Positions 12,346-54,269 of a stretch of DNA of 64,000 nucleotides are shown here, piece by piece. The notes beneath the pieces were generated by a model, which saw only the letters and a list, made by a program, of their open reading frames with translations, was not told where the DNA came from and did not search any database. The translations under genes were made by a program, and so were the position numbers. Source of the DNA: Mesotaenium endlicherianum (taxonomy: Eukaryota); the NCBI GenBank assembly GCA_009602735.1, contig WELA01000485.1, positions 1 through 64,000 of the forward strand. The letters run 5' to 3'. Numbering within the stretch: position 1 is the first letter of the stretch; each line of letters opens with the position of its first letter.

Positions 12346-12375
12346 AAAGGCGAGAAGCTGACGCCTGAGAAGGCC

Positions 12376-13100: not shown

Positions 13101-13409
13101 GTAAAAATGGTTTGCTCGGAAGAGGCAAACTACGGACTGCTAGACTGTTGTATGAATGACCGGTATCCAGGCCATTATGACCTCATCATGCAACGCGAAG
13201 AGGAGGGCTACACCAGCGTCAACATGCCGACTCCCTTGGTTTGGCAACCTCAGATTATGGAGCAACTGGAAGCTGTGAGTAACAGGGACCGTGGCCCGCA
13301 AGAGCTGTTACCAGTTCCCTATTCAATTAAGTCTGCTGCCAATCTGATGCCTGGAGTAGACCCGCTGCCGCAAGGCATTGTGAGGATGGAGGATCCTTTT
13401 CGCAGGAAA

Positions 13410-15840: not shown

Positions 15841-16783
15841 TGTAACGATCCGAGCTATTTTAGGCGTATTTGGGACGTTTTTCCAATTATCTAAAGTACA
15901 TTATACTATTTATCATATTATTTGATAAATGATTGCATCATATTTAATTATTCGCCACACGTGTGTGCCGATTAATTCCTGGTCGATTGGCGAAACGACC
16001 GAGATACAATTGCAAAAAGCGTCGTAACGTAACTCGACTACTTCGCAAAAGTACGACATAATTATTCATAAAGTTACTTTGATTAATTATGAGATGATAA
16101 CTCATTAAATCATTGATTGATTAAGTTGATTTGATTGTCATTATTTCGACAATGCACAATCACAGATTTCGAATTTACGACCAGTCGTTAATACGAACAA
16201 ACCGTCGTATCAAGATACGAACAAACCGTCGTAAAGACAAACGAAACGAAATATGCAAAGTCGCTTTGCATCGACGCGGATTCGAACCCGCGACTTGTCG
16301 TTTGAAACGTTCACACCTAAACCAATTGGCCAAGTAGTTACTCGTAAGTCCTGGTTCATGACGTAATGATTTGAACGCGACTCCGCGAACAGTCGCGACT
16401 TTTCGAAAAGTCGCGAGAACGCGAAAACGCCCGTTTGGCGCGAACCGGTTTTCTGAAAACCATTGAAAAGTCTCCAAACCGCCAAACGGCGCGTTTCGAG
16501 CATTCGGCCGAATGGGACACGTCCCTTCGACCGTTTTCGTTGAACATGAACCAGTGCCCTAGGTGGTGACTCGAAGCACTCCAGTGCCTCATGTTGTGCA
16601 GGTATAAATACTTGTAGAGTCATCGTGAGTGCAACTCTCACAAGCACACATTCTACGTTAGTTTACATTTTCGCTCTTTCGAGTATTCGTCGATTTGCAC
16701 ATTTATACAAATATTCCTTCCACTTGAATTAAATATTCCTTGAATACCGAGGAAAGATCCTCTCGAAAAGCAGAAACGTAACA
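15841..16783 (+). mobile_element. Solo LTR of family C (943 bp), TSD CGTAC
   Basis: TGTAACG...CGTAACA; reverse complement of 55546-56488 and 61525-62507; CGTAC at 15836 and 16784; single CGTAC at the A2 empty site (~54002). Confidence 0.96.
16268..16339 (-). other. tRNA-like Pol III A-box/B-box unit within LTR C
   Basis: TGGCCAATTGG, 33 nt, then GGTTCGAATCC inside a CGCGG/CCGCG stem; acceptor stem does not pair. Confidence 0.6.
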
Positions 16784-17050
16784 CGTACACCTCATCGCAA
16801 GAGAGGCGACGCGTCATTGGGAAAGGTAATAAGCCTAGGAAACAGGCTGCAGAGCCTATGGCAACGGAGGAGCAAGCTGCAAAGCCTGCTACCCCACCTC
16901 TTAAGAATCAGGCAGAAAAGCCTGAGAGCCAGAATCAGGCAGAAAAGCCCGAGGGCCAGGATGAGGGCGGAAAGCCCCCACCTGCACCCAAGAAGTAGCA
17001 ACTACTGGATGCCTTTGTTGGGGAGAAGCAACTTGAAACTGAGACTTTTG

Positions 17051-18159
17051 CCATTGGGAAAATGGTCTCAGCCCAGCAGAGAGCACAAGTAGAAAGGTTG
17101 CTAAAGAAACACCGCAAGGTGTTTGCTTTTACAAAGGAGGAGATTGGTAGAACCACTGCCAGTGTGTGTGAGATCACACTAACTACTGATAACCCAGATT
17201 GACTTGGGCCGCATAAGCTCAGTCAGACAGAGTGGGACTGTGCGGAAAAAACTTGCTGAAGAGCTGCATAAGCTCCGCATGATTGAAAAATTCACCTCAG
17301 TGCATGGGGCTCCCACAATAGTAGTCGCTAAAAAGGACGAGGCCGGCAATTACATTGCCACTCGTATGTGTGGAAATTAGAGGCGACTGAATCTCTACAC
17401 TGAGCCAGACAGCTATGTGATGCCTACGCCGGAGCGGATCTTTGCGATTGCCATCACCGGGAAGGTGTTCAGCATCATCAATCTGCGCCAAGGCTTCAAC
17501 CAGATCCCTGTGAAAACAGAAGATCAAGGTAAGATCGCTTTCTTGGCTCAAAGGGAACTTTGGCAATGGACAGTAATGCTATTTGGGCTGAAAAATGCCC
17601 CAGCCATATTTCAGAGGACTATGGATAAAGTGCTGGAGGGGCTGGATTTTGCTAAGCCATACATTGACGATGTGGTAGTATTCAGCGAGTCCATAGAGGA
17701 GCACCCCGAGCACTTGGAACAAGTGTTCCAGCGCCTGGAGAAATTCCAGATGAAGCTGCATCCTGGGAAGTGCAAATTCTTTAAGGCACATGTGCCTTAC
17801 CTAGGACATGAGATTGGGAACAATGCTATGTCCCCTCAGGCTGTGAAGACTGAGGCCATTTACAAGATACCTGCACCTGCGAATGTGTCTAAGTTGAAAG
17901 CTCTGTTAGGGCTAAGCGGATACTATCGTAAGTTTGTGAAGGATTATAGCAGAATTGCTAAACCCCTGACGGAACTCCTGAAAAAAGATGTGCCTTTTGC
18001 GTGGACAGAAGCTCAGGATAAAGCCATGAACGAGCTTAAGGAGCGGCTGGTAACAGCCCCAGTCTTGCAAACGCCTGACTACTTCAAGCCGTTCAATCTG
18101 CACACTCACTGGAGTCATGTGGGAATTGGCGCAGTGCTCACTCAGGCCGCAAGCCCTAG
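17051..18159 (+). pseudogene. pol: A1 reverse transcriptase and start of RNase H
   Basis: RMCGN*RRLN, MLFGLKNAPAIFQR, PYIDDVVVFS, GYYRKFVKDYS; cut by element D at 18160. Confidence 0.92.
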
Positions 18160-19473
18160 TGTAATGAATCAGTTCGTTATTTATTTAATTAATCGCATAC
18201 CTAAATATAACACTAAATAAGTATTATGTCTATATACTCACATGTGCGAGTTCATCTAGATGAATGTATGTCGATGTAATGCGAGTTTACTTACTTTGTC
18301 AAAAGGTCAGCAAGATGACTTTTGTACCATAGTGTAGTTTGCTGACTTTGTTGAAAAGGTCAGCAGGATGACTTTTGTATCATAGTGTGGTTTGCTGACA
18401 TTGTTGAAAAGGTCAGCAGGATGACTTTTGTATCATAGTATAGTTTGCTGAGATTTATATATCATTTATATACAGGATATAATATCAGTAGGTTGACATA
18501 TAGTAAGCTCGCTTGATATTAGTCAATATACTTAGCTTCAGTACGCTGAGGATAGACATATTCATTTAGATTGTTATTTGTAGATTGGCACATGTGACCG
18601 AAGTATACTGAAAGTCGGGAGGTCGACTGAGATTCGGTAAACCGATGTCCTACCAGTGTGGTTAACTCCTGGGTAGGCGGAGCCGTCGTCAGTCAACTGA
18701 ACAGTTAGGACTTCAGTCAACCGACCAATTAATATGGTCGTTATACCTAGATCCGTAAGTCCCAACTTAACGGGTTTCCCACGAAACGGCGCACCTTGCG
18801 CCGTGGTCAGCCAGGTGGTCACTAGGTACATAGCAGGCTGGGATCTCGTGGTCCCGCATTCTGGACAGTAGGCTTTACAGTCGGATTTCTACTTGCAAGT
18901 GATGTGTGCACTTTTTGGGTTCGTTCTAATGACCAGCCTTCACGGAAATTGCCATGGCTGCTTCGTTTGCGCTTCATTTGGAGCGAACTAGGACTTTTCG
19001 GAAAGGTCTCGTCAAGATGCATCCGTTGCCGTTAAGTTTGCTCAATTTGGAGTAGTATTGACAGAGTTATGCCCTCTGACATTTCGGGGTCACACAGCGG
19101 ACAGATTCCATGGTTTTTGCACCTAAGTCAGTGGGATGTGTTTGAGCTACTTTATGGTCATCTGAATGAGAGCGCCTTTGCTATTCAGTCCCCTGATGTT
19201 GTGTATGTGCTTACACATGCTTGTATGCCTGGTAGCTAGAAGTCAAGAGTTTCTGAAGGAGAAGCTCTAGTCCTCAAGCTCGCCTCTTTCTCGTGCCTTG
19301 TATTCGTGTGCAACTATGGCACACTACAATAAGTGAGTCAAGGGCTATAGATGAGTAAACGGAAGTCATTATAAGGGCGAAGATCGCTCCCTGATTTCAC
19401 ACGCTTCCACCTATCTCTGATCTTTTATATTTAAATGAAATATATTAATCTTGAATAAGCAAGATTCATTTCA
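18160..19473 (+). repeat. Element D 5' LTR
   Basis: TGTAATGAATC...GATTCATTTCA followed by G-TGGTATCGGAGC; three 53-bp tandem units at ~18297-18450. Confidence 0.94.
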
Positions 19474-22091
19474 GTGGTATCGGAGCTAAGTCCTTTCTTG
19501 AATGTCCGTGCTTGTCTTCTTTGTCTCATGAGGTAAATGTGTGAGGCTTACTTGTGTGGTATGATGAGTCTAGGTGGAGCTTGGGAAGTGTATGATGTAG
19601 AGCATTGCACATCCTGTCCAGGATCCTTCCACTTGCTCACCTAGTGTGTCTCTTGGCTCAATGTACTATGCGGCATACTAACTTGACTTTCCTAGCCTCT
19701 TGTGTACAGTTACACGCAACGAGAAGCCTGAAGTGGAGGCTTGATGGAAGAGGTGTCTGCAAGCATCAAGGGCAGCATCAAGGGAGTTGCATCATAGCAA
19801 GCTGGATATGACTCATTTACCTCACTTGATCATAGTCGTTGTGTGTTGTTATATGCAATCCACGGCTAGTATAGAGAGGGGTGTGCACTCCAGCGGTGCT
19901 AGAGGACTTGTTAGTCTGTTGTGCTAACCCTTTGGGTTTAAGCTTGTTGCTTTGCAAGAGACGTACCTCTCTTATTATGTGTGTGGTAGCTAGGTTGAGG
20001 GAGCTTGGGTATGGCTGCATGTGTGGAGCAATTGAGACAGTGCGTGCACACATGATTTACTAACTTACGTTTCCAAGTATGGATTACGACAGGTTTTCGT
20101 CGCCACGATCCAAGTGCACTACGTCGTCCACAAGCTTCAGCATGCTGCAACTTCTCTGAGAAGAGGCTTTTACAGCAACAATGGCATCCTACAGATACCC
20201 TCTACTCCCAACCATGGCTGTGACATTGTGTGCTCCTCTCGTTTGCCACTTTGACGTGGGCTGGAAGGTTTAGGGTATGTGCCTTGTGCTTGAAAGCTAT
20301 GTGTGAGACGGTGCTTTGGTGGTACTTGATGAGATCGTAGGAGCTTGGAGTTGAAGCTTAAGATAAGTCTAGTCAGTGTGCAGAGGTTTTTGAATGCGGA
20401 TCTTATGTGATTGCTGACTTAGGTTAAGTCAGTCTGCTGGATTACTTGACCTAATGTGGTTAAAGGGTTTAAGGGCTTGGGTTTATGGACGCAAGGACTT
20501 TTCTTTAACTCTCTTTAGTTTGCATGACTTTTTAAAGGTTAAGTGTCCGAGAGCAGCCGCGATCAATGAGTACTTTGAGTGCTTGAGCTGAACGAGCTCT
20601 TGGTGTCGCCATGCTTGGCGCGTGACATCTCTTACCGTGGGATTGTGGCTCGTTGGAGCTAGCGAGATAATCAGATAAGATGAGCATATCGAGACTTAGG
20701 TCTGTACGGTGTGTTGACTGACGTATGGAAAGTCAACGTGGATACTAGAGGGGGTTTGACTACTTGCCTTAGGTCCAGTTGGCAATTTGTTCTTGGATGC
20801 CACCTGTACACTTGGTCAAGTGTAAGGAGGTTTGTGTCTTCGTCATAGGGACGAACTGGGCATATTAGCAGTGTGCTAAGTCTTTGCCGGCCTTGCAGCT
20901 GACTGAGCTCGCTAGAGGCGCATGCTAGGTAGCATGCAAGATGCATTTGTATATGCGTCAGGTGCATGGAATTTGCATCCCGGGTGCTAGAGGTAGTGGA
21001 TCGCCGTTAGCATACCGTAGAGCAGGTGTAAAATGGGCCCTGCTGTAATAGATTCACTATGCACACCTAAGTAAAGACAGAAGAGACCATCGACATTATA
21101 GACGTTCTCGCAATGCATGGCTTGAATGATCTTGTTCAGTCCGATGCACAAACATTCTTCTTGCTAGCTTGGGGTTACAGTGCGAAAGTCTTACCAGGGA
21201 TCTATGCACGCTGTTGTCATTGGCTTGCTAGGTGCTTGCTGCAATTACAATAGGTGCCATGTATGTGCCTTTAGAGAGGAACTCGGTTTTGAGCTATACT
21301 GCGTTTGCCCATTGTCATTGGTTGAGTCTTTGTGATCCCAATGTTTGCCTTACCCTCCCGGGAACTATGTAAGATGGAGTCATCAGATCTTGAGTAGACT
21401 GATGCAGCTAGGGTGTGGTGTTTGCCACGCGTAGCTTAAGCTCATTGAAGGCAACTTACACACTTGTTTGTTGTCTGTTCAACAGACTGAGACCAGCAAG
21501 CAGAGTGTGAAGCGATGGTGCATACAGGTCGAGAGAGGCCGAGGAGTTGGCATGCTGGACGCTGCCACGTGACGCTTCCCCACCTGTCCTCTGGGCAACT
21601 TCAGGCAGTAAGGCCTGAAGGAGGGAGTATCTTGAAACATCAGAACTATGATACAGTTGGTTGTTTTTGATCCCTCTTCTCTTTGATTGTTGACTCTCAC
21701 CATTGGGTGGTTGTCATTTTGGTGTATGTCTTGCTAGGGAATGACCAGTATGAGTCATTGTATGTGAGCATTGGTAGAGTCAGCTAACTAAGCTACTTCT
21801 TGGTATGGATAAACTTGCTAATAGGGCCGGTTGTCTTCATCTCATAGCAAGCTATCTACACTCTCGAATGGAGGGATGTAATACGCTGGCTTGACTTTGG
21901 GTTATTCATGGATACAGCTTTGTGGTGAGAGGGTTTGAATGGCAGTACACTCTTCCCTATGCCACTCCGGTCATTGATCTAATCTTGAAAAATGGACTAC
22001 TTTTTTTTTGGGAGGGGGGGACTTACTTTCTTTCTTGCTTACTTGAGTGTTTGCACTTTGCGTCCTCTCTCGGTATTCCTTCGTTGATTCT

Positions 22092-22811
22092 TGTAATGAA
22101 TCAGTATATTGGCTGACATAATATTCATTTAAATATAATAGTTAATTAAGTTCAGCCTGCTGAAGTCTAGTTAATGATCAACCTGCTCGACTATATATAA
22201 ATATCAGTTTAATGACTCGGCCCGAGGTAGCAGGCTAAGGTCACCTTAAGTCAGCTTGCTGACACATTCTTTGACAGCCAGCTGACTTCCGTACTCAGTA
22301 GCAGCGAACTGCCTCGATATGCATCTAAGTGTGGTATGCTAGATGCATGGCCAGATGACATCCCTATGATGGATGGCGATTCGGGATGATGGGAGATGGA
22401 GGTGGATTTGGTTAACCGAGGTCCTACCAACGTGGTTAACTCCCGGGTAGGCGGTGCCATCGCACTGACCGTTGAACAGTAAACTCATTCCATGTACATA
22501 TGCTAGGCATTGCTCTCGAGTTCGGCATTCGGAAACGAGGCCAACTCTCTTGTACAGCTTACTGAGAGAGATCTGAATCCAAGGCGAGAAGCCATTGATA
22601 CGCACTGTCTTCTAACCTTGCTTATGTATGAGTTTACTGATTTGCATTATTGATGCTAGTTCACTCGCATTTGACTTACGAGTATTATTCACTGCTAGTG
22701 TGTTGTCCTTTGCCGTTTGACCAATTAACGGAAAATACCATAAAGATTACTTGCTGATATAAAGATCTTTATTAATTGTTAATTGCCTATCTGGTAAGGC
22801 GATTCATTTCA
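22092..22811 (+). repeat. E1 5' LTR
   Basis: TG...CA, near-identical to 30243-30963, PBS follows. Confidence 0.95.
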
Positions 22812-22845
22812 GTGGTATCGGAGCTTTAATCACAGTCTTCTTTGT

Positions 22846-24362
22846 ATGGTAAGGACAAGGTCTCAAACTAGCAACTCCCGAGACATGGAGAACCAGGATA
22901 ACGAGAATGTCAAAAACCAGGCGGAAAGCCATGTAGCGGGAAACCGTACCTATTCGGAAGCAGTAGCGGATACTGCAGCTAGGGAGGCTGCAGATGAGGC
23001 AGCTGCTATTGCCTCAGTCGCAGCTCAGCAAGCTGAGGAGGAGATAGCCAGACTAGAAGCTGAACAAGTAGCAAAGGCCGCTGAAGATATACAAAGGAGG
23101 GAAGGACAGCCAGCTGACGAGCGCACTGTTGAAGAACTTATGGCATCAAGGGCCAATGTTCTGAACCCACCTCCTGCCGTACAACTCAATGTACCCCTAG
23201 GTCAAATACGTGACCGGCTGAATGCGGCAGGAATTGCTGCTGCAGGAGCAAGAGGGATTGTTGAGGACACTACTCAGCGAGTAGATGCCAATGCTGCTGC
23301 TGCATTTGCTAATCTACCACCCCAAAATGTAGACTTGGGAGCATTGTTCGTTCAGATGCAGTCGCAAATGGCGACCATGTATCAGTCCCAGCAGGAGGAC
23401 AAAAGAATCATAATGTCCCTACTCCGGGACAGAGACCAACTGGGGTCTCACACCACTAGTGGTGGTGGCCGAGGGCCTAGTAAGCCCAAGCCGAAACCTC
23501 CCCAGGACTATGATCCTGAGGGAAACAGAAAATATTACCTGATCAAGTTTCTCGCGGATGTTGAGCAGTGGCTGGAGAACTACCCAGAACTGCAAGATTA
23601 CGAGAAGGTCAGGCACACCGGTGCGCTACTGAAAGGCAGTGCCGCAGACTGGTGGCTTTACTGGAAGGAAGAGCGTAAGGCTCGGCAACTCGGTGACCCT
23701 ACGTGGGTAGAGTTTGTCGAGAAGTTGCATGAGAAGTTTGATGTCATCAACCAGCAGGAGAAAGCTATCTATGCGATGATCTCCCTGACACTGAAGCAGA
23801 CCACATCAGTTGCTGAGTTTGCTCAAAAGTTCCAGGAGAACATGATGAAGCAGCCAGATTTGCCAGAACGGTATAGGATAGCATACTTCAGGTATGGCTT
23901 GAAATCCGAGGTCTCTGGTCATTTTGCTGAGAAAAAGTATGAGAAACTTGCTGACTTGATCCAGGATGCTGATGCCTGGGATCAGCAGCAGTTCAATCAT
24001 AAGCGCCAGAGTAATGCTTTGGTGTCTAAGGTTGTCAAAAAGCCACACGGTTCCTACAATGCAATTGAGGGAGACCAGGCTGAGGATGATCAGGGTGATG
24101 GATACGAGTATGAGTATAATGCCATACAGTCTAGAGGTAGACGTGGTATAAGTACAATGCTATTCAGTCTAGAGGTAGAGGCGGTCTCTCTCGAGGTGGC
24201 TATGGAAGGGGTGGTGGTAGGACTAAGCCGAGACCAGCCTCAGCAAAATCCACTTGCTACCATTGTCAACAGAAAAGTCACTACAGAGAACAGTGTCCGA
24301 TCAAGCACCTGCCCAAGGTCGAGAGAAAAGACCAGCCTTTAAAAGACAGCAACAGTCAGTAA
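22846..24362 (+). pseudogene. gag: E1 gag (frameshifted before the zinc knuckle by a 38-bp duplication)
   Basis: MVRTRS start, LLKGSAADWW, LKQTTSVAEF; knuckle [14 protein letters not shown] lies in another frame, whereas the frame is continuous in E2. Confidence 0.9.
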
Positions 24363-27300
24363 TCCAGTCTACTGACTGTGAGGATGCTAGAGATAGTGAG
24401 TCGTCACTAGCTACCCTCATAGCAGGTATTATGGGTTCTGCTGAACTGGATTCACTATGCATGCCTGACAACCAGATAAAGGAGACCATCAGCAATATAG
24501 ACGTCCAGAGAGTGCACACTCTGGATGCTCTTGTTCCACCTGATGTCCAACATTTCTTTGCTAAGTCAGGAGAACAATGCGAAAGTCAGGAAAAGACAGT
24601 CCTCCCTATCCTACTGCATTGCATGATTGCAGGTAGGAAGGTGAGCGCATTTGTTGACGGAGGGGCGTCACATACTTTTATCCACAAGGACTTAGTTAAG
24701 CGGCTAAGGCTGCCTACTGTCACCCAAGGGAATAGAAAAATATTCCTTGGAGATGCCTCAAGTATCCCGGGAGGAGTTATAACCAAGCCTATTGAGGTCC
24801 AGTTAGGTTTTGGCATTGCAATTCTAACTGAAACGCTTACATTTGAGGTACTCAACACTGGCTTTTATGATCTCGTGCTAGGCAGGTCCTGGCTTAATAG
24901 ACATCAAGCTGAAGTGTGTTGGAGCAGAGGTACAGTTAAAGTGAGAGGAGCCAGTGATGGGCAGACTGACTTGGCACCCACCAGTGCTCTTCCTCTTGTC
25001 CTGTGTGGATGGCAAATGAAGGAAAAGAAGAGGCTTCCAGAAGGATGCAAGTTGCTGAATGCAATGGAGTTCGTCAAAAGCTGGAACCAGAAGGAAGACA
25101 GAATGTTCTGTCTGCTACTAAGAGAGGTACCTCCTCAACCTGAAGAAGCGGTTGAGAAAAAGGTAAGCCCTCCGGAGCACCCTACTGCTGCAAAAATTGT
25201 TGCTCAGTACACTGATGTATTTAATATGTCTCCAGGACTACCCCCTAAGAGGGAAGTAGATCATAGGATTGATCTGTTACCTGGGAGTCAGCCACCTTGG
25301 CAACGCACATATGGCTTGTCTTATGTGGAGAGCAAGGAGTTGAAAACACGGATTGCAGAGCTTGAGGAAAATGGTTATATTTCTCTCAGTAAATCACCTT
25401 ACGGCGCACCCATCCTATTTCTTAAGAAAAAGGATGGCAGTATGCGGATGTGTGTGGATTACAGAGGCCTGTACAGAATTACAGTGAAGAACAAGTATGC
25501 TTTACCCAGAATCGAGGGCTTGCTTGATACCTTGTCAGGTGCTAAGGTGTTCAGTAAGATAGATCTCAAGAGTGGTTATCATCAAATCAGAATTGCTGAG
25601 GGGGATGAACACAAGACTGCCTTCCGCACACGTTATGGACACTATGAGTTCAACGTGATGCAATTTGGACTGACTAATGCTCCTGCTACTTCATGGGTGC
25701 TATGAATGACATTTTCAGACCTTATTTGGAGAAGTTTGTGCAAGTTTTCCTGGATGATATTTTAATTTTCTCTAAAGATGAAGCTCAGCACACTGAACAC
25801 TTAAAGACAGTCCTGGACACTCTGCGGAAGAATCACTTGTATGCTAAAATGAGCAAGTGTGATTTCTTTAAGGAAAGTATTGAATTCTTAGGCCACGTTG
25901 TCGGTAAAGAGGGCATCAGTGTGGATCCTAAGAAAGTACAGACCATAAGGGATTGGCCAGTACCACAGTCTGTCTCTGAGGTTGGATCCTTTCTCGGGTT
26001 GGCTAACTACTATAGGAGATTTATTGAGAATTATTCCACAAAGGCCAGTAAACTGACTGACCTTACTAAGAAAGACATCGGGTATGTGTGGGGGGAAGAG
26101 CAGCAGGCTGCCTTCCAGACCCTTAAAGATGCCCTTTGTTCTGCCCCAGTGCTAGCCGTGTATGACCCCAGCAAACCGGTGCAGGTGGTTACTGATGCCT
26201 CTGACTTTGCCATGGGTGCTATTTTGTTGCAGCCTGCTGACAAAACCACAAAGGATGGTAAGATACGGCAGGAGTGGCATCCTGTGCTGTATGAGTCTAT
26301 GAAATTCAATCCAGCGGAGATTAATTACTCAGTGCATGATAAAGAGCTACTAGCTATCATTCATGTACTCAAACAGTGGAGAGCATACTTACATGGTAAA
26401 GCTTTTGAGGTGATTACAGATCATCTAGCTCTGACTCACTTTCAGAAGAAGTCCAAGCTGACGAGGAGGGAGAACCGCTGGAGCCAGATGCTGGAGCAGT
26501 TCCAAGTCCAAATCGACTACAAACCAAGGAAGTTGAATCCTGCTGATGCACTCTCTAGAAGACCTGACTTGCAAGAAAGGAACTTTAGTCAGCATGCTGT
26601 AGATAAAGTCCTGTGTGCACTCACTTCACTAAAGGTGAAAAAGTCCTTCCTTGAACAACTTAGGAAAGCCTACCTTTCTGACCCAACATTTGAGCCCAGC
26701 CCCACTACTGGTGTGTGTCGTGCTACTGCACTCGGGTATAAGCTTAAGGGAGGGGTCTGGGTGACTGAAACCACTTCAGGCAGGCTAAAGCTGGTCATTC
26801 CTAATAACTTGGAAGTAAGGTCTCTCTTATTGAGTCAAGCGCATGACAATCTCCTGGGTGGACATTTGGGGCAGGCCAAAACTGTTGGCAAATTGGCAAA
26901 ACATTATCATTGGGAGGGGTTACCCCGGGAGGTCTTGAAATATGTCAAGTCCTGTGACCAGTGTCAGAGAAATAAGTCTCGGCACACACCACCCGGAGGT
27001 CTCTTGCAACCGCTGCCCATCCCAGCTGGACGCTGGGAAACTATATCCATGGACTGGGTGGTCTCACTACCAAGAACTGCCAACGGGCATGATTCAATAC
27101 TGGTAGTCGTGGATAAACTGACAAAAATGGTCATTTTTATCCCCACAACTGTCAAAGTGACTGCACTCGAAACAGCGAGACAGTTTTACAACCATGTAGA
27201 ATGCCAACATGGGCTCCCCGCTAATATCATCTCAGACAGAGACTCAAAATTCACCTCTAAGTTCTGGAGAGCTTTAATGGGGTTAATGGGAGTCAAACAG

Positions 27301-28146
27301 CTGCTCAGCGCAGCAAACCACCCTCAGACTGATGGGCAGACTGAAAGAACTAATCGAGTTCTGCAGGAGGTGCTGAGAGCATATATTAACCAAAAACAAG
27401 ATAATTGGGATGACCTGTAGCCTCAAATTCAATTTGCGGTCAACAGTGCGGTGCACGCGTCAACGGGCAAGACTCCTTCTGAACTCAATCAAGGTAGAGC
27501 CCCTAAGTCTCCTTTAGATGTACTGGGGGAGTCTTTAACTGACCCGGAAGGGATTGACAACCCGATCTCCCTCCAGTTAACTCAGGAGTTTGCTGACACC
27601 CTGTCAGAAGTCCAACGAAACCTGCACAAGGCCCAAGAAAACCAACAAAAATACGGTAATCAACACCGTCGGGAACTGACATTTTCCAAGGGGGATTTAG
27701 TAAAATTGCATTCTCAGCACCTGTACCTCCCTGGTGTGGTCAAGAAAAAGCTTGGCCCTGTCTGGGTCGGTCCATATTCGGTAGTGCGTCGTGTCGGTCA
27801 CAATGCTTACAAACTGACCATGTCAGCAGACTACAAGGGTCACCCGGTCTTTAATGTCTCCTACCTGGAACCATACATCAAAGGTGATACACTGTTCACA
27901 GGTCGGTTACCTGTCCAACCGGGACCGGTCCCCGCTGTCCGGGACGGCGATCCTGAGGAATATGAGGTCGATGAGATTTTAGACGCTCGCTCGGTCCGTC
28001 GATCGTCTAAATATGTCATGAAGTACCTCATCCGATGGAAGGGTTACGATGCCTCTGGGGACACTTGGGAATTTAAAGACCAGTTGACCAATGCCAAAGG
28101 GGCGTTGAAACGGTTCCACCTTCAGGCGGCTGGGGCACCTCCCTAA
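24335..28146 (+). pseudogene. pol: E1 pol: protease, RT, RNase H, integrase, chromodomain
   Basis: [40 protein letters not shown]...[33 protein letters not shown]...YLIRWKGYDASGDTWE. One frameshift (~25693) and one stop (27418). Confidence 0.95.
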
Positions 28147-28496
28147 CAGTCATTTCAGTTGACACGGAAAGGTGACAGGAGGTCCTGTCTACATATAAGT
28201 TGGAGGGAGATGTGACAGTTAGTGACAGTTGTGACAGGCAGCCCACTTTTAAATTTTAGTTGGAGGAAGTGGTAGTCTCTGATCACCATATTACCCACTC
28301 AACCTGCGCTCACACTCACTTGCTCTCCAACTCAATTTTTCCTTATATTCGCTCACACCAGGTATTCCACTCTAGGAACTCTCCCGATCGCGTCCCTCTT
28401 CATCAAGGGCACTCAGTAGCGGCAAAATATCATGACTTCACTAACTGCATTGTGTTTATGATTGAGNTACTAACTGCATTGTATTTATGATTGAGC

Positions 28497-30157
28497 ATGA
28501 TGACTCAAAAGTCGGAACTCAAGAGGAAGAGAAGGGCGGAAGAGGCACATGCAGAATACTTGCAATTCCGTGGAGACATCGAATCATCTTCCATCACCGC
28601 TCGGGAATCACAACGACTCCAACAACAGCGGGAGGCATAGAAGAAGAAGGAGGAGGAGGAACAGGCCAGACTGAGGCAGGAAGAAAAGCTGCAGAGGAGG
28701 CCAAAGAAGCAGAGGAGGAGAGGCAAGCTGAGGAGAAGCGGAAGCAGCAGGCTGAAGAAGAAGAACAGAGGAGAATCAGCAGCTACCGCTACACGGTGCT
28801 GGGCAAGGGCTTTGATCTACTGGAGGAGGCCTTCAAGTATGCCCAGAGAAGTCGCAGTGAGTCGCAGAAGGAAATCCTCCAGAAGGAAGGGGAGACATTC
28901 GAAAACTTTGACAAGTATATAGAGGTCGGCACAGGGCTCCTCCTCTACCACGATTGCGCCAGGATGGTAGGATATACGGTCAGAGGGGCCAAGGCAATGG
29001 CCCAGATGAACGAAGCAGGGACTGTTTCAATTCCTGGTATCTGCGGGAAAGATAGGGTCATCAGGATGATCCCTATGCACGCGGACAGCTTCAAGGACTC
29101 AAGACCCCACAATAGGTTCAAGGCCATGTACAATGAGGTGGAGAGGAGGAGCTGGGAATTCTTGGCCAGAGAAACCAGTCAGTTGGACTTTGCAGGGCAC
29201 CGGTACCCTTGTACTCTCAAAAAGACAGACGTTGCCTTCTTCCAAAAGCCCACTGATTGGCGGTGGATGACCATCAACATGAGGGACCAGCAGAATGACA
29301 GGGCGACGGATGAGGATTTCCTTACAGACGTAAACGGGAACATAGTATTGCCCCCTCACATTGCGGCTTGGGACCCAAGATTGGATGGAGTCAGAGACTG
29401 CATGAGGCAAGAGATGCAGGGGGACAGAATCAAGACTTGAGAGTCCTTTTCCAAAGGGAAGCACGCTTATGCCAAATGGGCAAGTAAGCAGGGGGAAAAG
29501 GACCTCTATGCGGTCCGAACTCAGCAGCCCCCACCAGCACCCAAAAGGGGAAGGTCAGTAGGATATTCTTTTTCTCGGGAAGAATTGGAGCAGCGGACAG
29601 AGGAGACCCCAGAAGTCTCAGAGGAACCCGGGGACGACGAGGAGGCGGAGTCGGAGGAAGACGAGGAGGAAGGCAAGGAGGAGGACACTAGCCCCGCCGT
29701 GATCCTGACACCGGCCACATCCCCTGTAAGGGAGAAGACGGGGTGGGCCCCGCCGAAACTCGCTCAAGAGGAGGATATCACTTGGCTGGGGATTGCCAGA
29801 GGACAGAGCCCATCTCCAGGCAAGGAGACCCAGTCGGACAAGGCAGACAGGAGGGCTGCTCGGGAGATAGCCAGAGGCCTGCCAGCATCTCCCTCGCACA
29901 GAGGGCATGTACCCTTGGCTCATGTCATGCAACATCCTTCCGGCATGCCAGTATACGTACCTGTCAGTTTGAGGGCTGCCCAGGAGAAGGCTGCCTCTCT
30001 TCAGTTTCAGACTGTATAGGAGGAAACAGCCATGTTACTGCGTTCTCCGCCGGGTCCCCACACGGAACCCCCTTCTCTGATAGGCTTCAGAAGACCCCAA
30101 GACAGGAGGAGGTCTGGCTCCCCTGAGTATAGAGCCTCAGGGACACCTCCCTCCTAA
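28497..30157 (+). pseudogene. E1 additional 3' ORF of unknown function (sense strand)
   Basis: Charged coiled-coil-like N-terminus, mixed-composition core, acidic/Ser-Pro tail; conserved in E2 (41230-42890) with partly different lesions. Confidence 0.75.
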
Positions 30158-30242
30158 TGGCAGTAGGCTGGAGACGGAAGAGACAGCACGCTGTTATTAG
30201 TGTTAGTGTTGTCGGGGCGACAACATGATAAGTTGGAGGGAT

Positions 30243-30963
30243 TGTAATGAATCAGTATATTGGCTGACATAATATTCTTTTAAATATAATAGTTAATTAA
30301 GTTCAGCCTGCTGAAGTCTAGTTAATGATTAGCCTGCTTGACTATATATATAATAACAGTTTAATGAATCGGCCCGAGGTAGCAGGCTAAGGTCACCTTA
30401 AGTCAGCTTGCTGACACATTCTTTGACAGCCAGCTGACTTCCGTACTCAATAGCAGCGAACTGCCTCGATATGTATCTAAGTGTGGTATGCTAGATGCAT
30501 GGCCAGATGACATCCCTATGATGGATGGCGATTCGGGATGATGGGAGATGGCGGTGGATTTGGTTAACCGAGGTCCTACCAACGTGGTTAACTCCCGGGT
30601 AGGCGGTGCCATCGCACTGGCCGTTGAACAGTAAACTCATTCCATGTACATATGCTAGGCATTGCTCTCGAGTTCGGCATTCGGAAACGAGGCCAACTCT
30701 CTTGTACAGCTTACTGAGAGAGATCTGAATCCAAGGCGAGAAGCCATTGATACGCACTGTCTTCTAACCTTGCTTATGTATGAGTTTACTGATTTGCATT
30801 ATTGATGCTAGTTCACTCGCATTTGACTTACGAGTATTATTCACTGCTAGTGTGTTGTCCTTTGCCGTTTAACTAGTTAACGGAAAATACCATAAAGATT
30901 ACTTGCTGATATGCAGATCTTTATTAATTGTTAATCGCCTATATGGTAAGTCGATTTATTTCA
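30243..30963 (+). repeat. E1 3' LTR
   Basis: Preceded by AAGTTGGAGGGAT; ends TCA then TSD ATTCT. Confidence 0.95.
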
Positions 30964-31983
30964 ATTCTCCTCCACCCACTCGTCCCTCCGCAATCCTCTG
31001 TAACTATCACTCTGTGTGGTTCCTATGATGCGGAGTTGTAGGCACTTTTTGGTGTGCTTATGTGGTTAAAGCTGTCGGGTCGACAGCTATTTAAGTTGGG
31101 GAGAGGGAGATGGGATGCGTATTAGGAGTATATGCTGTGCTTACCTGCATACTCAGCAGCCAGTGTATGTACTAACTGAGTCATACACTGCCACGTCCTA
31201 TGTATGTACTGCATTAATATCAGGAGCATCAGTGACTGACTGGTGTAAATTGTGAGTTGCAGTACACTGTTGGAGCAAGTGTACTTACTAACTGAGTAAG
31301 TACATTGCCATAAGTGGGATTGGGTAGCAATGATGCATGGCACACTAGGGAACTGCTTGAGGTGACCAGCATATTGCTCAAAACCATATGTTTCTTTGAA
31401 CTTAGAGTGTCCTGAAAATGTGGTTAAAATTTAAAATTTCCATTGGCTCATTAACCTGATGTTACTCATCTTGTGAGGGCATTCAATGCCATCAAACCAG
31501 TTGGTCTCCCTTTTCCTTCAGTACACTGAATGTTGAGCAGGTACCTAAGTCACAAGAAATTGCTTGTGAGGAGCTTTCAAGGTGGGAGCACGGCAGGAGT
31601 TGAAGACCAAGAGAAGGAGAAAAGGCTTAGTTCAATGCGCTGAGCTTTAATAACATTCTTTCATTGTTTGACCTCAAAAGGAGGCTGTTCGATTTGGGTG
31701 TGGTTTGCATGGTGTGAGGTGCTCTATTATGTCTTTCAACCGGAAGGACTATTGTGAGTAGGGGTAAGTCCATGCATGTCTTCAGTTAATGATTGTGAAG
31801 TCAGATGGTTGCTTGCATGACAATTTGTTGTGATTGATTTTCACTTGCACTGGGTAGGTGAATACATTACGCTCGTGTCTTGTTTGCTTGCTTTGCTTCA
31901 CCTAGTTGACTGAAGTGTAATATTAAATAAATGTATCATATACTGAGTGTTGTCGAGGCGACAACAATTTAAGTTGGAGAGAT

Positions 31984-33299
31984 TGTAATGAATCAGTTCG
32001 TTATTTATTTAATTAATCGCATACATAAATATAACACTAAATAAGTATTATGTCTATATACTCACATGTGCGAGTTCATCTAAATGAATGTATGTCGATG
32101 TAATGCGAGTTTACTTACTTTGTCAAAAGGTCAGCAAGATGACTTTTGTACCATAGTGTAGTTTGCTGACTTTGTTGAAAAGGTCAGCAGGATGACTTTT
32201 GTATCATAGTGTGGTTTGCTGACATTGTTGAAAAGGTCAGCAGGATGACTTTTGTATCATAGTATAGTTTGCTGAGATTTATTTATCAGTTATATACAGG
32301 ATATAACATCAGTAGGTTGACATGTAGTAAGCTCGCTTGATATTAGTCAATATACTTAGCTTCAGTACGCTGAGGATAGACATATTCATTTAGATTGTTA
32401 TTTGTAGATTGGCACATGTTACCCGTAGTATACTGAAAGTCGGGAGGTCGACTGAGATTCGGTAAACCGATGTCCTACCAGTGTGGTTAACTCCTAAGTA
32501 GGCGGAGCCGTCGTCAGTCAACTGAACAATTAGGACTTCAGTCAACCGACCAATTAATATGGTCGTTATACCTAGATCCCTGGGTCCCAACTTAACGGGC
32601 TTCCCACGAAACGGCGCGCCTTGCGCCGTGGTCAACCAGGTGGTCACTAGGTACATAGCAGGCTGGGATCTCGTGGTCCCGCATTCTGGACAGTAGGCTT
32701 TACAGTCGGATTTCTACTTGCAAGTGATGTGTGCACTTTTTGGGTTCGTTCTAATGACAAGCCTTCACAAAAATTGCCATGGCTGCTTCGTTCGCGCTTC
32801 ATTTGGAGCGAACTAGGACGTTTCGGAAAGGTCTCGTCAAGATGCATCCGTTGCTGTTGAGTTTGCTCAATTTGGAGTAGTATTGACAGAGTTATGCCCT
32901 CTGACATTTCGGGGTCACACAGCGGACAGATTCCATGGTTTTTGCACCTAAGTCAGTGGGATGTGTTTGAGCTACTTTATGGTCATTTGAATGAGAGCGC
33001 CTTTGCTATTCAGTCCCCTGATGTTGTGTATGTGCTTACACATACTTGCATGCCTGGTAGGCAAGAGGTCAGGAGTTTCTAAAGGAGAAGCTCTAGTCCT
33101 CAAGCTCGCCTCTTTCTCGTGCCTTGTATTCGTGTGCAACTATGGCACACTACGATAAGTGAGTCAAGGGCCATAGATGAGTAAACGGAAGTCATTATAA
33201 GGGCAAAGATCGCTCCTTGATTTCACACGCTTCCACCTATCTCTGATCTTTTATATTTAAATGAAATATATTAATCTTTAATAAGCAAGATTCACTTCA
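31984..33299 (+). repeat. Element D 3' LTR
   Basis: Direct repeat of 18160-19473, preceded by PPT, followed by TSD. Confidence 0.94.
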
Positions 33300-35201
33300 C
33301 CTAGAGAGAAGTATGTCATTGCCTATGCCTCAGGCTCTAACAATCGAGCGGAGAGCAACTACTCGTCCTACGAAGGAGAGCTGCTGGCAGTGTTTTGGGT
33401 TGTCACACACTTCAGAGAGTATCTGTGGGGAAGACCCTTCACGCTGATCACGGATCACTCACCATTACTATGGCTGATGAAGAATGGAGACCTCACTGGT
33501 AAGTTGGCTCGCTGGGCTCTTAAGCTGCAAGAGTACCAAATGACGGTGGTGCACAGAGCAGGAGTGCTCAACAACGACACCGATGGACTCAGCAGGAACC
33601 CAGACCCATCTTCAGACGACAGAATAGGAGCCCGAGAGGACAAAGACCCGAGCAGCCCAGCAGAGTTGGTGGCCTGCCTAGCCGAAATGGCTGGAATGGT
33701 AGAATCAGGTGAAGCTGAACCTCTACCCCTGTTCAGTTCAGAGATCTGGAAAGGTCAAGCTACTATGCACTGGCTGAAGACGGGAACTCACTTGGAAGGG
33801 CTATCAATAAAGGAGAAGGACCAGGTAAGCCATCGAGCTAAAAAGTTTTGCTGGAAACGCAACAACCTCTTTAAAATCTAAGAAATTGGCCAGGAGATGT
33901 TAGTGCCAGAACCCATCAGAAGAGCTCTTGTGCAGGAAATAAGCGAGGACACTGGACACTATGGTGTCAAGAAGACGTATAGTCTTTTGAAGCTGTCTTA
34001 CTGGTGGAGGGACATGAAGCAGCAGTGTGAAGATGTGATCAAGGCCTGCCAAAGCTGTGATCGCGTCAAGGCTGGTTTTACACAGCAACATCCACACTTG
34101 CAACCTTTGCCGATCATGGGCCTAGGCTACCGCTGGAGCTGCGATCTCGCAGGTGAGCTACCGCTGTTGAAGCGAGGTAACAAGTATATCATGGTCATGA
34201 TTGAGCATTTCTCTAAGTGGATAGAGGTCGTGCCTCTGACTGCTAAGGAGCGTCTAGGGACCGCGGAAGCGCTCCTCAATGGTGTGATTGTGCGTCATGG
34301 AGCTCCAGCAGAAGTGCTGACAGACCAAGGGTCTGAGTTCCAAGGGTCTTTTTAGAAACTCTTGGATAAATGCTTCATCGATCATCGCACTACGTCTAGA
34401 GATCATCCGCAAGCGGATGGTCTGGCAGAAAGGATGGTGCTAACCATAAAGTCTGCTTTGCGCAAGTTTTGCCTTGAGCATGACAAGCGTGACTGGGATC
34501 TGGCCCTGCCATGGCTGGTTATGGGTTACAGATTTAGCAAACAGACTGCCTTGGCGAGTTACTCGCCATATCAGATACTGTTGGGCGGAAGTCCAGTAGT
34601 GCCCAGCAGCATCAAGCAGGAGATTGAACAGGTGAAAGACCTGGACAGCCCTGATGAACTGCTAAAGGTGATGGTACGCCGTAAGGCGTTATCTGAGCGC
34701 ATGATGCCGGCTGCACTGGACAATCTGAAAATTGTACAGAAAAGAGATGCGCAGCGTTACGCCAGGATGCGAGACGGAAGTTACCGTCTGCAGATGACGC
34801 AAATTCAAGAAGGAGACTTTGTCTACCGCAAGCGCCAGACCAAGACCACCATCGACACCAGTTCAGGTGCAGTGATCTTACGCGTGAAACATGCGCTTGA
34901 CAATGGTGTGTTAGAATTGGAAGGTTCTGATGGTAAAACCATGAGAGACCACGTGCAGAATTGCTCTCTATGCCATTTGCCAAATATTGATCTTACGGTT
35001 AGGGTTGTGCCCGAGGAATTGGTGCCAGCCACACCTTGTGCCAGCTGCAAAGTGGTGGATGATCAGGAAGCAATGGTAACTTGCGGTAAGTGTGGTGCCC
35101 GTTGGCACACTTTCTGCATTGGCGTGGAAGAGATTATGGCAAGACAATGGGAATGCCCTGACTGCCTTCCTAAAACTCCTAGCCGTAAGGCTGGAAAATA
35201 A
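33300..35201 (+). pseudogene. pol: A1 RNase H, integrase and C-terminal PHD finger
   Basis: NYSSYEGELLAV, TDHSPLLWL; GHYG...CQSCDR; WSCDLAG, VLTDQGSEF, QADGLAERMV; C4HC3 pattern CASC-x11-CGKC-x4-H-x2-C-x12-CPDC. Confidence 0.92.
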
Positions 35202-35235: not shown

Positions 35236-35247
35236 GAAAGGGAGGGG
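35236..35247 (+). promoter_or_regulatory. Polypurine tract of A1
   Basis: GAAAGGGAGGGG 35 nt after the integrase stop, immediately before TGTAAG. Confidence 0.85.
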
Positions 35248-35853
35248 TGTAAGAGGAATTCAGGCAAGACAGGTATTTTTAAAATCTTTTGCTAAAGTCC
35301 TAAGATAAGCAGACGGTGAGAGCTGAGTGAAGGAGAACGTTGCCCTGAGTACTGGTCATGGTTGCATGGTGCAAGTTCAGGAGCCCAGGGCTGGGTCAAC
35401 CTTGGTAAGGCTTGTCACCGACACACGTGCAAAGATCGATCGACCATGTTTGCCCGCTCGTGAGGAGGGCCACCGACACATCAACCAGGTCAACGGCACA
35501 CGTGCTGAAAGGCCACGCACGTGCCAAGGGACCGACACTGTTAGGCACGACAATATGTCTGAAATCGAGATTTGAGATATATTAAAAAATTCACATACTA
35601 AAATGCATGCCCGCGCATTCTTCCTCAGCATTCTTCAATGTAGCAAGTCTCCATAACCACAATCTAACTATATAAGCTAGCAAGATGAGCGTAGAAGTCA
35701 TTGCAGTGCAGAATTGTAGAGCTGCTAAGTTAGATCTCCTAATCCCGTCTCGTAAGCGAGCTCTATGTCGAGCAAGCTGCGGGAGCAAGCACTTCGTCAC
35801 CTAGCTATCACGTCAAGCCTACCCACCAGTAAGCCAACCACGTCCCGTCTCCC

Positions 35854-51015: not shown

Positions 51016-52359
51016 GTTTGGCAACCTCGGATCATGGAGGGAGTGGAAGCTGTGAGTAACAGGGACCGTGGCCCGCAAGAGCTGCTGCCAGTCCCTTATC
51101 CAGTTAAGTCTGCTGCCAATTTGATGCCTAGAGTAGACCCACTGCCGCAAGGCATTGTGAGGTTGGAAGATCCCTTTCGCAGGAAAGGAGTAGTAGGGCT
51201 AGAATTGTTTGCCGGACTTGGTTTTGGAACCATCTTACTGATTCAGCGAGGTATCCAGGTTTCCAAAGTACTGTATGTGGACAATGATAAATGTGCTTTC
51301 ACAGCATTTAAGGAGGTCATGAGTCAGATGCGGCAAATGTACCATTTCAAGGCGTTGGTGCCTACTAGTTTGGTGCGTCTTGCTGGAGGAAAAATTCTCA
51401 ACGTGAAGTCTGAGGACCTGTATGGTTACAGGATTGACTGGATCTTTCGGGGATTCTCTTGTCAACCTTTCTTGCAAGCTGGGAACAGGAGGAGATTCAA
51501 TGACCCGCGAGCACAACACTGGGGATGGATGGTGAAAATCATCAATCTGCTGCGGGAACGCCAGCATATCTACCCACCAGTGTTTGTGATTGAGAATGTA
51601 CATCCAGGGATGGATTACAACCAGATGAAGCCAGGAGATCCATGGCTGGTCTTCGACTCCACCCTGGGTCATCATGTATTGATCAACAACGCCAGACACG
51701 GAGGACTCTCACACCGGGCTAGACTATTCTGGACTAACGGCATGTCCATTGAAATCCTGAGGGAGATGGAGGAGATTACGCGGCGCTCACCAACAGCAGT
51801 ATCTGTAGGAAAATCACTGATGGTGGAAACCAAGCCAATGATCAGGAGAGATTCCTTCCCACAGTACGTCATCAACGAGCCAGGCCGGCCAAGGGTGGTG
51901 CTGCCCACCTTCACGGCATACCCAAGATCACGCGCATTCGTGAATGGAGGACCAGGAATGGTCAAGAATGCGCACGACAGAGAAGCTCAGTGGAGAGAGC
52001 CGACAGCTGAAGAGAACGGAAGGTGCCTCGGGTTACCCAACTCCATTGCACAAGAAATTGTTGCGATGGTGGGACAAGACGACGCTGGGAAGATATTCGG
52101 CAATATGATTGGGCATCACTCCATGACGTGGTTGGTGGAGACAATCATGACGTGGCAGCAGATGACATTCTCTGAGAAGCCTATGCCCAGGCCGAGACCA
52201 GTAACGATTGGAGTCCAGGTGGTGCCAACCTCTGATCAGAGAGCTATCAGAGAAGCGCATCAGCGACAAGAAGAATATGGTGTTGAAAGGGACGCAGCTG
52301 AGGCTGACCAAGGTGAAGCACTCAGAAAAACCAGAGTGGCAGAGCTGACCAGGTGTTAA
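51016..52359 (+). CDS. A2 C5-cytosine DNA methyltransferase domain, open frame with all catalytic motifs
   Basis: I LELFAGLG; IV GFSCQPF (PCQ in A1); VI VIENV; VIII SHRARLFWTN; IX WREPTAEENGRCLGLP; X KIFGNMI, in canonical order. The first 21 aa of the track ORF (50953) are F LTR sequence. Confidence 0.92.
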   Translation, partial: VWQPRIMEGVEAVSNRDRGPQELLPVPYPVKSAANLMPRVDPLPQGIVRLEDPFRRKGVVGLELFAGLGFGTILLIQRGIQVSKVLYVDNDKCAFTAFKEVMSQMRQMYHFKALVPTSLVRLAGGKILNVKSEDLYGYRIDWIFRGFSCQPFLQAGNRRRFNDPRAQHWGWMVKIINLLRERQHIYPPVFVIENVHPGMDYNQMKPGDPWLVFDSTLGHHVLINNARHGGLSHRARLFWTNGMSIEILREMEEITRRSPTAVSVGKSLMVETKPMIRRDSFPQYVINEPGRPRVVLPTFTAYPRSRAFVNGGPGMVKNAHDREAQWREPTAEENGRCLGLPNSIAQEIVAMVGQDDAGKIFGNMIGHHSMTWLVETIMTWQQMTFSEKPMPRPRPVTIGVQVVPTSDQRAIREAHQRQEEYGVERDAAEADQGEALRKTRVAELTRC

Positions 52360-54269
52360 GACCTACTGGCACGAATTGACAATCGGATGACGGCTCTACA
52401 CGACCCTCTGGAAAGAGAGTTGCGAAGGCTGCGGGATGACGTAGCCATGGAAGACCAGGCAACTGGTGAAGCAAACCCTTTGGCGAGCGCTGCAGCAAGC
52501 AAATCATAGGAGGTCCCATTATCTGCAGAATGCTCCAGCCAAATATTTGTGAGGATGCCGGAATGGGAGGAAGAGACCACTTATGAGTTACGGAACATGG
52601 CCCAAGACCAGGTCTACGGAAGCCCATTCCCAGGCGCGGCAACGTCAAGATATGGAGAACGCCAGTGCAATATTAGCAAATGGGCCGAAGAATGCAGTCA
52701 GAATTCAGGAAATTTTGGAGGGTCTGGAAAGACCATTTTCTTGGAGGTGATTTTTGAAGAACGCAAGAAGGAGACGGTCGAGAGATTGCCCGCCACACCT
52801 GTTTTGATGAGCCCAGAGCCAGAGACCAAAGGGCAACCACAAGGCACAGTTACCAGCACAGCTGAGTCGATCACCAGGCAAATCATGGAGCAGTTGCTGG
52901 AAGCAGACGCCCCTCGACTCAAGGAAGAGAAAGTGGCGAAAGCAGCTCGCGCTCTACAGTCAGCCATCATCAACATGGCGAGGCTCAACACAGGAGGGGA
53001 TGAAGAACCGCCGCCTCCTGGAACGGAGAAGCCGGAGGAGGGAGAGACTGCAGAGATGCAAGGCCTCCCAGAGTTTGCGTTACCGTCACTCAACAATGGA
53101 GTGGAAGCAAGGGAAGAAGTTCCACTTTTTCCCACGCCAGAGTTGGATCTGCTTGACTTGCAGGAGCTGAGGACAGACGACTGGGTAGCTGACCACCAGA
53201 TGGGGCCAAGCCCAGCAGACCTTTATGAAGAACTAAGGTTACCAACATCTAGTACCCCTATTGCTAGTCTTTCAGTGGCAGAGCCCAAGTCAACCGCACG
53301 ACCGCCGCAACGGCAGGAGGTGACTACCTGCACTGCTAAAGTTGAGACAGCGCAAGATAAGCCCGAGGGTCGCGCAAGCAGACCAAGGAAGGCGGCCCGT
53401 GAGGGTAACGCATCTTTTAAGAGGATGCTAAAGCGATATTTCAAGCATAAGGGGAAGGCTCACAGAGAGGGCGTTTCGCGAGGAACCACAGCCCCACCCC
53501 CTCCGCCTCTGCGGGATATTCTGCAGAGAGAGGGAGAGGACGGCTTGATTCGAAGGGCAATGGCATTGGGCATCAGTGTGCCGCTAGGCATTAACACGCC
53601 CTTGTTGCAACTATCAGATCTTAGGATGCAAAGGCCGGAGGCACCTGCTCCCATGACACCTGCAATCCCATAATGGGAACTGATGGATCTGAGAAACACC
53701 ATCAGTCGCTTGACCGCAGCAGATGATGCTTTCCTCGAACAACTAGCGGCACCTCAAAGGCTGCAAACGTTGGTGCAGGCATGGACGGTCACACCACCCG
53801 CAAGAGAGGAGTATGGCACGACCGTCGCCCGCATGGCTAGTATTGAGCGAAAGTGGGGCTGGGTAATCAGCCCTAGGACAGATCCTGCAGGTTGGCCAGT
53901 GGCAAACCAACCTCGGCCACGTGAAGAAGGAGGAACCGGGACCAATTGGACTGCAGTCGACGAAGAAATGTTCCTGAGGCAACCCATTCGGAGGCGCCTG
54001 ACGTACACCTCATCGCAAGAGAGGCGACGCGTCATTGGGAAATGTAATAAGCCTAGGAAACAGGCTGCAGAGCCTATGGCAACGGAGGAGCAAGCTGCAA
54101 AGCCTGCTACCCCACCTCCTAAGAATCAGGCAGAAAAGCCTGAGAGCCAGAATTAGGCAAAAAAGCCCGAGGGCCAGGATGAGGGCGGAAAGCCCCCACC
54201 TGCACCCAAGAAGTAGCAACTACTGGATGCCTTTGTTGGGGAGAAGCAACTTGAAACTGAGACTTTTGC

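Follow-up and report, generated by a model that had tools for sequence, protein, structure and literature searches.

The window analysed here, a stretch of 64,000 nucleotides of Mesotaenium endlicherianum DNA, is a nest of LTR-type retrotransposons, one of which, copy A1, is a dead, nested-into Gypsy element that combined a DNMT3-like methyltransferase domain with a PHD finger at the C-terminus of its integrase. This pairing of DNMT and PHD is lineage-wide. Once the pieces of A1 are rejoined the order of its domains is Gag-ZnK-PR-DNMT-RT-RH-INT-PHD; in the window the DNMT and the PHD finger lie 21 kb apart with two inserts between them. The features of A1, of a second copy (A2) and of a third, fragmentary copy are collected in Table 1.

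Table 1. Features of the A1/A2 family in the window and the evidence on which each was placed
Feature	Position	Strand	Evidence or remark
Third 5' end of A1/A2 family, 94% identical, cut by assembly gap	3075..4333	+	sequence comparison
Target-site duplication of A1, 4 bp, left copy	9264..9267	.	flanks match uninterrupted host repeat near 2925-3075
5' terminal region 'A' and leader of A1	9268..10627	+	35 contigs diverge before 9268, contigs bridge into gag; A end perhaps near 10500
Gag, two zinc knuckles (11998, 12085) and aspartic protease of A1	10628..13060	+	Pfam zf-CCHC, gag-asp_proteas; tblastn with P0160; stops and frame change
DNMT3-like domain of A1	13400..14060	+	motifs I, IV (PCQ), VI; two stops; ~390-nt internal deletion relative to A2
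Long linker, RT and start of RNase H of A1	14060..18159	+	Pfam RVT_1, tblastn; interrupted by solo LTR
Solo LTR of neighbouring chromovirus family, inside A1	15841..16783	-	5-bp duplication
Nested LTR elements inside A1 RNase H	18160..33299	.	5-bp duplication
RNase H remainder and integrase (HHCC, D-D-E core, C-terminal domain) of A1	33305..35201	+	Pfam RT_RNaseH, Integrase_H2C2, rve; catalytic motifs; single frame, two in-frame stops
PHD finger (C4HC3), integrase C-terminus of A1	35037..35165	+	PF00628, PDB-sequence PHD matches, fold
Polypurine tract (PPT) of A1	35236..35247	+	sequence; G-run at equivalent place in relatives
3' terminal segment 'B' of A1	35248..35552	+	35 contigs diverge after 35552; terminal motif shared with relatives' B repeat
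Target-site duplication of A1, 4 bp, right copy	35553..35556	.	exact copy of left
A2, uninterrupted DNMT3-like domain (about 51180-52160, SCQ in motif IV), linker, RT	51016..55545	+	PF00145 E=1.6e-10; DNMT3A/3B best by profile and fold
A2 continued, RNase H and integrase, 96% identical to A1	62513..64000	+	window ends ahead of PHD position

The reconstruction of A1 follows from its inserts (15841-16783; 18160-33299), each of which is flanked by an exact 5-bp duplication, and from database polyproteins that align in order across the insert junctions in tblastn searches. Its native coding length, from the ATG at 10628 to the stop, is about 8.87 kb or ~2,956 codons, obtained by removing the inserts and adding back the deletion relative to A2 (387 nt added; BLAST offsets give 393 nt). 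This agrees with the ~8.9 kb and ~2,950 codons of the preliminary description, whose order Gag-ZnK2-PR-DNMT-linker-RT-RH-INT-PHD is also recovered, with Phe in place of the last Cys of the second zinc knuckle. A1 is dead because stops are located in gag, DNMT, RT and integrase, because the second knuckle has decayed, and because an internal deletion has left its DNMT without the motif VIII region. A2 is a dead copy too, broken despite its open DNMT. In one public RNA run of 1,036 million letters, which carries the same species label as the best-matching DNA run, a single read was found, on the 3' terminal segment; it is not taken as evidence for or against expression. In one public sequencing run contig depth, which is a poor measure, is far lower over 10700-14400 (gag-DNMT) than over 9268-10500 and 34000-35550, and may hint at internally deleted derivatives. 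Between DNMT and RT there is an acidic, proline-rich linker of several hundred residues, open in both A1 (14515-15507) and A2 (52510-53673), which has no Pfam match. A 185-bp inverted integrase fragment of the A1 family was also seen at 36091-36275 (minus strand), inside gag-like, zinc-knuckle-bearing sequence at 35700-37300.

That the A1 integrase ends in a C4HC3 PHD finger just before the polypurine tract had been proposed in the preliminary description, and a Pfam search bears it out: PF00628 matches above its cut-off of 24 bits (29.4 bits, E=8.4e-7), while the C4HC3 pattern occurs once in the 64-kb window and in 0 of 30 codon-shuffled windows. The finger is in frame and closes a stop-free segment (34356-35201) that also holds the C-terminal half of the integrase, the stop codon (35199-35201) lying upstream of the purine tract. 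The finger retains its eight zinc ligands and its C-terminal Trp. An AlphaFold model that includes the finger, built with 18 aligned sequences, is of modest confidence (mean pLDDT 62), and the finger in it superposes on the solved PHD fingers of BAZ2B, TAF3, KDM5B, MORF and ATXR5 with deviations of 1.5-2.4 A across ~50 residues; Foldseek returned no match to this model at E<=0.001. Two residues ahead of the His (His-2) there is indeed an Arg, as first reported; Thr precedes Cys3 and Gly follows it, and there is no acidic residue in the four positions preceding Cys1.

The generality of the pairing was established from relatives. Among homologues of the A2 DNMT that reach the integrase C-terminus, taken from the best 150 of 355 matches, a PHD finger is present in 49 of 57 and a chromodomain in none of the 57, the latter count having been made with a profile built from the three chromodomains of the window only. 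Of the eight proteins lacking the finger, five appear truncated, stopping within 24 residues. P0268 and the longer cluster member P0300, both DNMT-bearing, continue without a finger, so that the pairing is the rule but not obligate. The same picture is given by metagenome loci (the best 80 of 367, which are highly redundant and so count as a few families): where at least 4 kb of upstream sequence is available, 22 of 23 loci have the DNMT and 21 of 23 have both domains. The co-occurrence that the preliminary description had asked to see across copies is found across relatives in both sets. When the integrase end served as query, 64 and 27 relatives were retrieved, the majority of them with PF00628; these sets contain records named from Calypogeia, Marchantia and Sphagnum. 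The named relatives span liverwort, moss and chlorophyte records. With the A2 DNMT as query, a word-index search gave no match, unlike the full HMMER search with its 355, and no relative was found among viral contigs.

Intact single ORFs with DNMT, RT, INT and PHD by Pfam are P0075, P0077, P0092, P0147, P0169 and P0206, and P0092 in particular is a natural intact relative of 2,811 residues with the order DNMT-RT-RH-INT-PHD. Two layouts are evident. The A1 group has PR-DNMT-RT-RH-INT-PHD, and most of the matches (within the best 150 of 355) have RT-RH-DNMT-INT-PHD, with the DNMT directly before the integrase in at least 36 of the 150 proteins; one record of this second layout is from Scenedesmus. 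The DNMT has therefore moved or been gained twice. The PHD always follows the integrase while the position of the DNMT varies, which ties the finger to the integrase. Many relatives of the second layout (P0076, P0079, P0019, P0268) extend 150-550 residues beyond the PHD position, with one weak Tudor-like match.

The cage Trp of PHD fingers that read H3K4me3 is found at His-2, and it is absent from A1, which has Arg. Readers of H3K4me3 have an aromatic cage with an invariant Trp, and readers of unmodified H3K4 lack the cage and have acidic residues clustered before Cys1 and a hydrophobic one ahead of Cys3 (both as described in PMC3241642). In 85 distinct fingers of the family, His-2 is Gly in 78, Ala in six and Leu in one; all 85 have a hydrophobic residue ahead of Cys3, 78 have Asp after it and 48 have an acidic residue within four positions of Cys1. 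In a separate count, Trp was found at His-2 in one finger of 46 (P0270). The best solved relatives of a typical family finger are WSTF, KDM5/lid PHD1, KMT2D, CHD4, ATXR5, BAZ2, MOZ/DPF, UHRF1, AIRE and BHC80, which we take to be mostly of the unmodified-H3 class. The family PHD is best read as a predicted finger of the unmethylated-H3K4 type. The preliminary description had arrived at the same ligand from the Arg in A1. The conclusion stands on the evidence from the family (Gly in 78 of 85, solved relatives) but the argument does not, because Arg at His-2 is seen in only one of 66 rows, that of A1 itself.

The A1 finger is in fact the lowest-scoring of 86 (34.9 bits against a median of 74.7), in a comparison biased by A1 being outside the profile and all others inside it. 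Several positions associated with H3 binding differ in it from the family state, and its median identity to relatives is 31%, against 46% for the integrase part. Other copies, seen in public contigs, carry Asp after Cys3 as in the family, where A1 has Gly, and keep a contiguous INT-PHD-PPT run (contig records 13 and 22). The possibility that Gly or Trp had mutated to Arg in A1 alone was considered and dropped. The 40 best-supported of 315 contig rows include no difference at this codon but three others in the finger that change an amino acid, so Arg is probably the state of this host's subfamily, with Gly elsewhere. The divergence of the A1 finger makes the ligand of the subfamily less certain than that of the family, and the subfamily may have lost or changed its ligand.

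Assignment of the DNMT required the family as well. A single DNMT sequence gave weak matches, to HaeIII and Dnmt2 only, while a profile of 39 DNMT domains matched DNMT3A at 4e-23, DRM at 1e-11 and HhaI at 4e-10. The model of the A2 DNMT (pLDDT 88) has DNMT3A/3B as its top Foldseek matches, with TM 0.7-0.8. By profile and predicted fold the family DNMT is of Dnmt3 type and not rearranged. The catalytic Cys, the motif VI Glu and the motif VIII Arg are invariant in the 39 aligned domains; motif IV, in 131 pattern matches, reads ECQ in 77 and PCQ in 33. The observed/expected CG ratio is 0.46-0.73 in A1/A2 and 0.43-0.85 in DNMT-less neighbours, so that depletion is no stronger in the former. The domain of KnitGypsy-Dnmt3 of K. 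nitens showed no activity in yeast, a result that its authors call inconclusive, and purifying selection on the K. nitens domains is described in the same paper (PMC5890265).

The preliminary description also saw the PHD finger as replacing a chromodomain. Chromodomains do occupy that place in three neighbouring elements, whose ORFs (27421-28143, 38599-40170 and 56644-57996) end in Chromo domains by Pfam, and A1 has no Pfam match to Chromo. The slot is the same, but by its RT A1 belongs with the PHD lineage and not with the chromoviral neighbours. In a quick, midpoint-rooted RT tree (58 of 78 rows, near-duplicates having been removed) A1 and A2 fall in a 14-row group with proteins in which the DNMT precedes the RT (SH-aLRT 92), and the three chromoviral neighbours form a separate clade on a long branch (100). 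The tree gives no sign of a chromodomain swap: A1 is apparently not a chromovirus that exchanged one reader for another. Since the root was placed at the midpoint, the tree is not used to order gains and losses. In one chromovirus family, each of the two copies has a long extra coding-like region after the chromodomain (28466-30019, plus strand; 41230-43176, minus strand), and the piece 28466-29437 has no Pfam match.

The ends of A1 were located by contig divergence in one public sequencing run, with 35 contigs at each end. A1 bears short inverted termini, and segment B resembles the 5' region of A1 no more than shuffled sequences do. A1 does not have a conventional LTR pair: the local score was 22, and shuffled sequences gave 21 on average and up to 25. 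Likewise, the 1.25-kb repeat 3089-4333/9270-10518, considered as the LTRs of a minus-strand neighbour, is actually the 5' end of this family. In relatives the arrangement PPT-B-A-B was found at 29 of the 58 loci with enough downstream sequence, and a CA-nn-TG junction motif at 26; most of the remainder end after a single B. For 12 relatives with the 5' end in view, an exact 4-bp duplication was found at the second B in two and at the single B in four. The full form in relatives is A-coding-B-A-B and the layout of A1 is A-coding-B only, so that A1 appears to be the single-B form of these split-repeat elements. Such a form could arise by B-B recombination, by assembly collapse or as an alternative integration product.

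At the B-A junction of relatives the CA-nn-TG motif is near-palindromic and circle-junction-like, and B terminates in repeated copies of the terminal motif (L003:10881-11534, L016, L053, L019, L064; window 35248-35552). In the few relatives viewed there was no obvious tRNA primer site after A. The combination of a DDE integrase with split repeats suggests a cDNA intermediate cut at the junction by the integrase; a description of such a mechanism was not found in the portions of the literature available. Two members of the family have inserted into copies of a single host repeat, at sites ~75 bp apart (3075, 9268 and 35553-35625, compared with 2925-3075), which possibly reflects a target preference, or chance in a repeat-rich nest.

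The PHD finger more probably than otherwise tethers the integrase to the unmethylated H3 tail, with the DNMT acting as a separate module on the element's new DNA. Because the protease would cut the polyprotein, at putative sites, the PR-DNMT-RT layout would leave the PHD on the integrase and the DNMT elsewhere. INT-PHD would then steer the pre-integration complex away from H3K4me3-marked promoters, as chromodomains do for chromoviruses; a PHD-bearing Gypsy element of Chlamydomonas is reported to insert in intergenic DNA 2.6 times over chance (PMC9940879). The DNMT would methylate CG in the cDNA or in the fresh insertion, as proposed in PMC5890265. Both domains would serve a quiet landing in silent chromatin, in two steps and not through one ADD-like, reader-guided enzyme.

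The preliminary description has the element both choose and methylate its target chromatin. Reader and writer would then be coupled, the PHD docking the integration complex on H3K4me0 nucleosomes and bringing or activating the DNMT so that the landing site is methylated, as the ADD domain does in DNMT3A. The near-universal co-occurrence of the two domains would accord with this, as would the predicted DNMT3-like fold and the existence of elements with a chromodomain and a methyltransferase (EpiLTRs, bioRxiv 10.64898/2026.05.21.726589), and in the largest group the DNMT, lying directly before the integrase in at least 36 of 150 proteins, might remain joined to it. However, shared ancestry alone explains the co-occurrence, P0300 and P0268 have the DNMT without the PHD, the finger is a single PHD and not an ADD domain, and in the A1 clade the DNMT precedes the RT, with linker, RT and RNase H in between and ~1,400 codons separating it from the finger. 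A complex prediction for the DNMT domain with the integrase C-terminal domain and PHD scored 0.23 against a mark of 0.34 and counts neither way. Coupling is best imagined in the RH-DNMT-INT-PHD layout, not in that of A1, and overall seems improbable. The same low expectation attaches to its most ambitious form: a green-lineage-wide family with its own de novo silencing kit, in which the integrase PHD would read unmethylated H3K4 and guide the DNMT3-like enzyme joined to it, so that the landing site is methylated, in a convergent rebuilding of the ADD-methyltransferase logic of DNMT3A, in an element with DIRS-like split repeats and a near-palindromic CA-nn-TG junction instead of an LTR pair.

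Either domain might also have lost its presumed role. In this host's subfamily the finger may be a drifting zinc module, which folds without specific reading of H3 or binds DNA or another protein. This is unlikely, if less so than coupling: the lower identity of the A1 PHD than of its integrase and the changes at several family positions, only some of them private to A1, speak for it, but the eight zinc ligands and C-terminal Trp are kept, and other copies have both the family-like Asp after Cys3 and a contiguous INT-PHD-PPT run. It is very doubtful that the DNMT domain has ceased to methylate cytosine in DNA and serves in nucleic-acid binding or RNA methylation, leaving the element a reader without a DNA writer. 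The inconclusive yeast result (PMC5890265), ECQ as the commonest motif IV and the lack of extra CG loss in A1/A2 would fit such a loss, but they have to be set against invariant catalytic residues, a confident DNMT3-like model and the purifying selection described for K. nitens (PMC5890265). The two losses are not mutually exclusive and can both hold. For the family as a whole, an integrase-borne reader with a separate DNMT is the reading that we prefer.

The dead copy in the window alone adds little; what is worth recording is the lineage-wide PHD together with the split-repeat ends. The questions opened are whether PHD fingers target integration as chromodomains do, and what retrotransposon DNMTs methylate. 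Given intact single-ORF members such as P0092, both PHD targeting and the substrates of these enzymes become testable.

A1 can be compared with several known systems. The chromoviruses of the window resemble it in that their integrase also ends in a reader domain, close before the PPT, but they form a separate RT clade and have 5-bp duplications, identical LTR pairs and no DNMT. In DNMT3A/B the ADD domain adjoins and regulates the catalytic domain. These enzymes share with A1 the catalytic fold, as predicted, and an H3K4me0-type reader in the same primary translation product; A1 differs in that its single PHD is on the integrase, far from the DNMT, and is not an adjacent ADD. PHD-retrotransposon fusions are described as common (bioRxiv 2021.11.30.470311), and the word PHD is absent from the text of PMC6317226 (REXdb, with Phygy and Selgy) in the form available. 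Gypsy-7a_cRei of Chlamydomonas is an active Gypsy element whose Gag-Pol carries a PHD suspected of guiding insertion, with an intergenic bias; compared by its description, it differs from A1 in having ordinary, near-identical LTRs and no DNMT in the figure legend (PMC9940879).

Elements that unite a reader with a DNMT are, as such, already in print. The EpiLTRs are LTR elements that, like A1, combine a cytosine methyltransferase with a histone reader, but the reader is a chromodomain and not a PHD, the DNMT is sister to DNMT4, there is an extra adenine methylase (DAM), and the hosts are different; the same preprint applies the name 'Gypsy-DNMT3' in streptophytes (bioRxiv 10.64898/2026.05.21.726589). 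For the specific pairing of DNMT and PHD, no description was found in the available parts of the literature, and the key figure and supplement of PMC5890265 may show it. A1 fits this Gypsy-DNMT3 kind, of which KnitGypsy-Dnmt3 of K. nitens is the example, the likeness being drawn from its description. In A1 the Pol frame contains a DNMT and keeps the Gypsy order RT-RH-INT, and its relatives have intact single ORFs; KnitGypsy-Dnmt3 likewise has a Gypsy Pol with an intronless DNMT3-like domain in the frame of the RT (de Mendoza et al. 2018, PMC5890265). The legend to Fig. 4 of that paper gives it DIRS-type repeats with Gypsy domains, to be compared with A-coding-B-A-B in the relatives found here. 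PHD has no matches in the searchable text and supplements of PMC5890265, of which Fig. 4c and the main supplement may show the finger. The relatives found here differ from KnitGypsy-Dnmt3 in coming from liverwort, moss and chlorophyte records and in including the second layout, RH-DNMT-INT-PHD. Gypsy-DNMT3, previously from one alga, would thereby be extended to a large lineage in which a PHD finger on the integrase, of the predicted unmodified-H3 type, is the rule and the DNMT occupies two positions.
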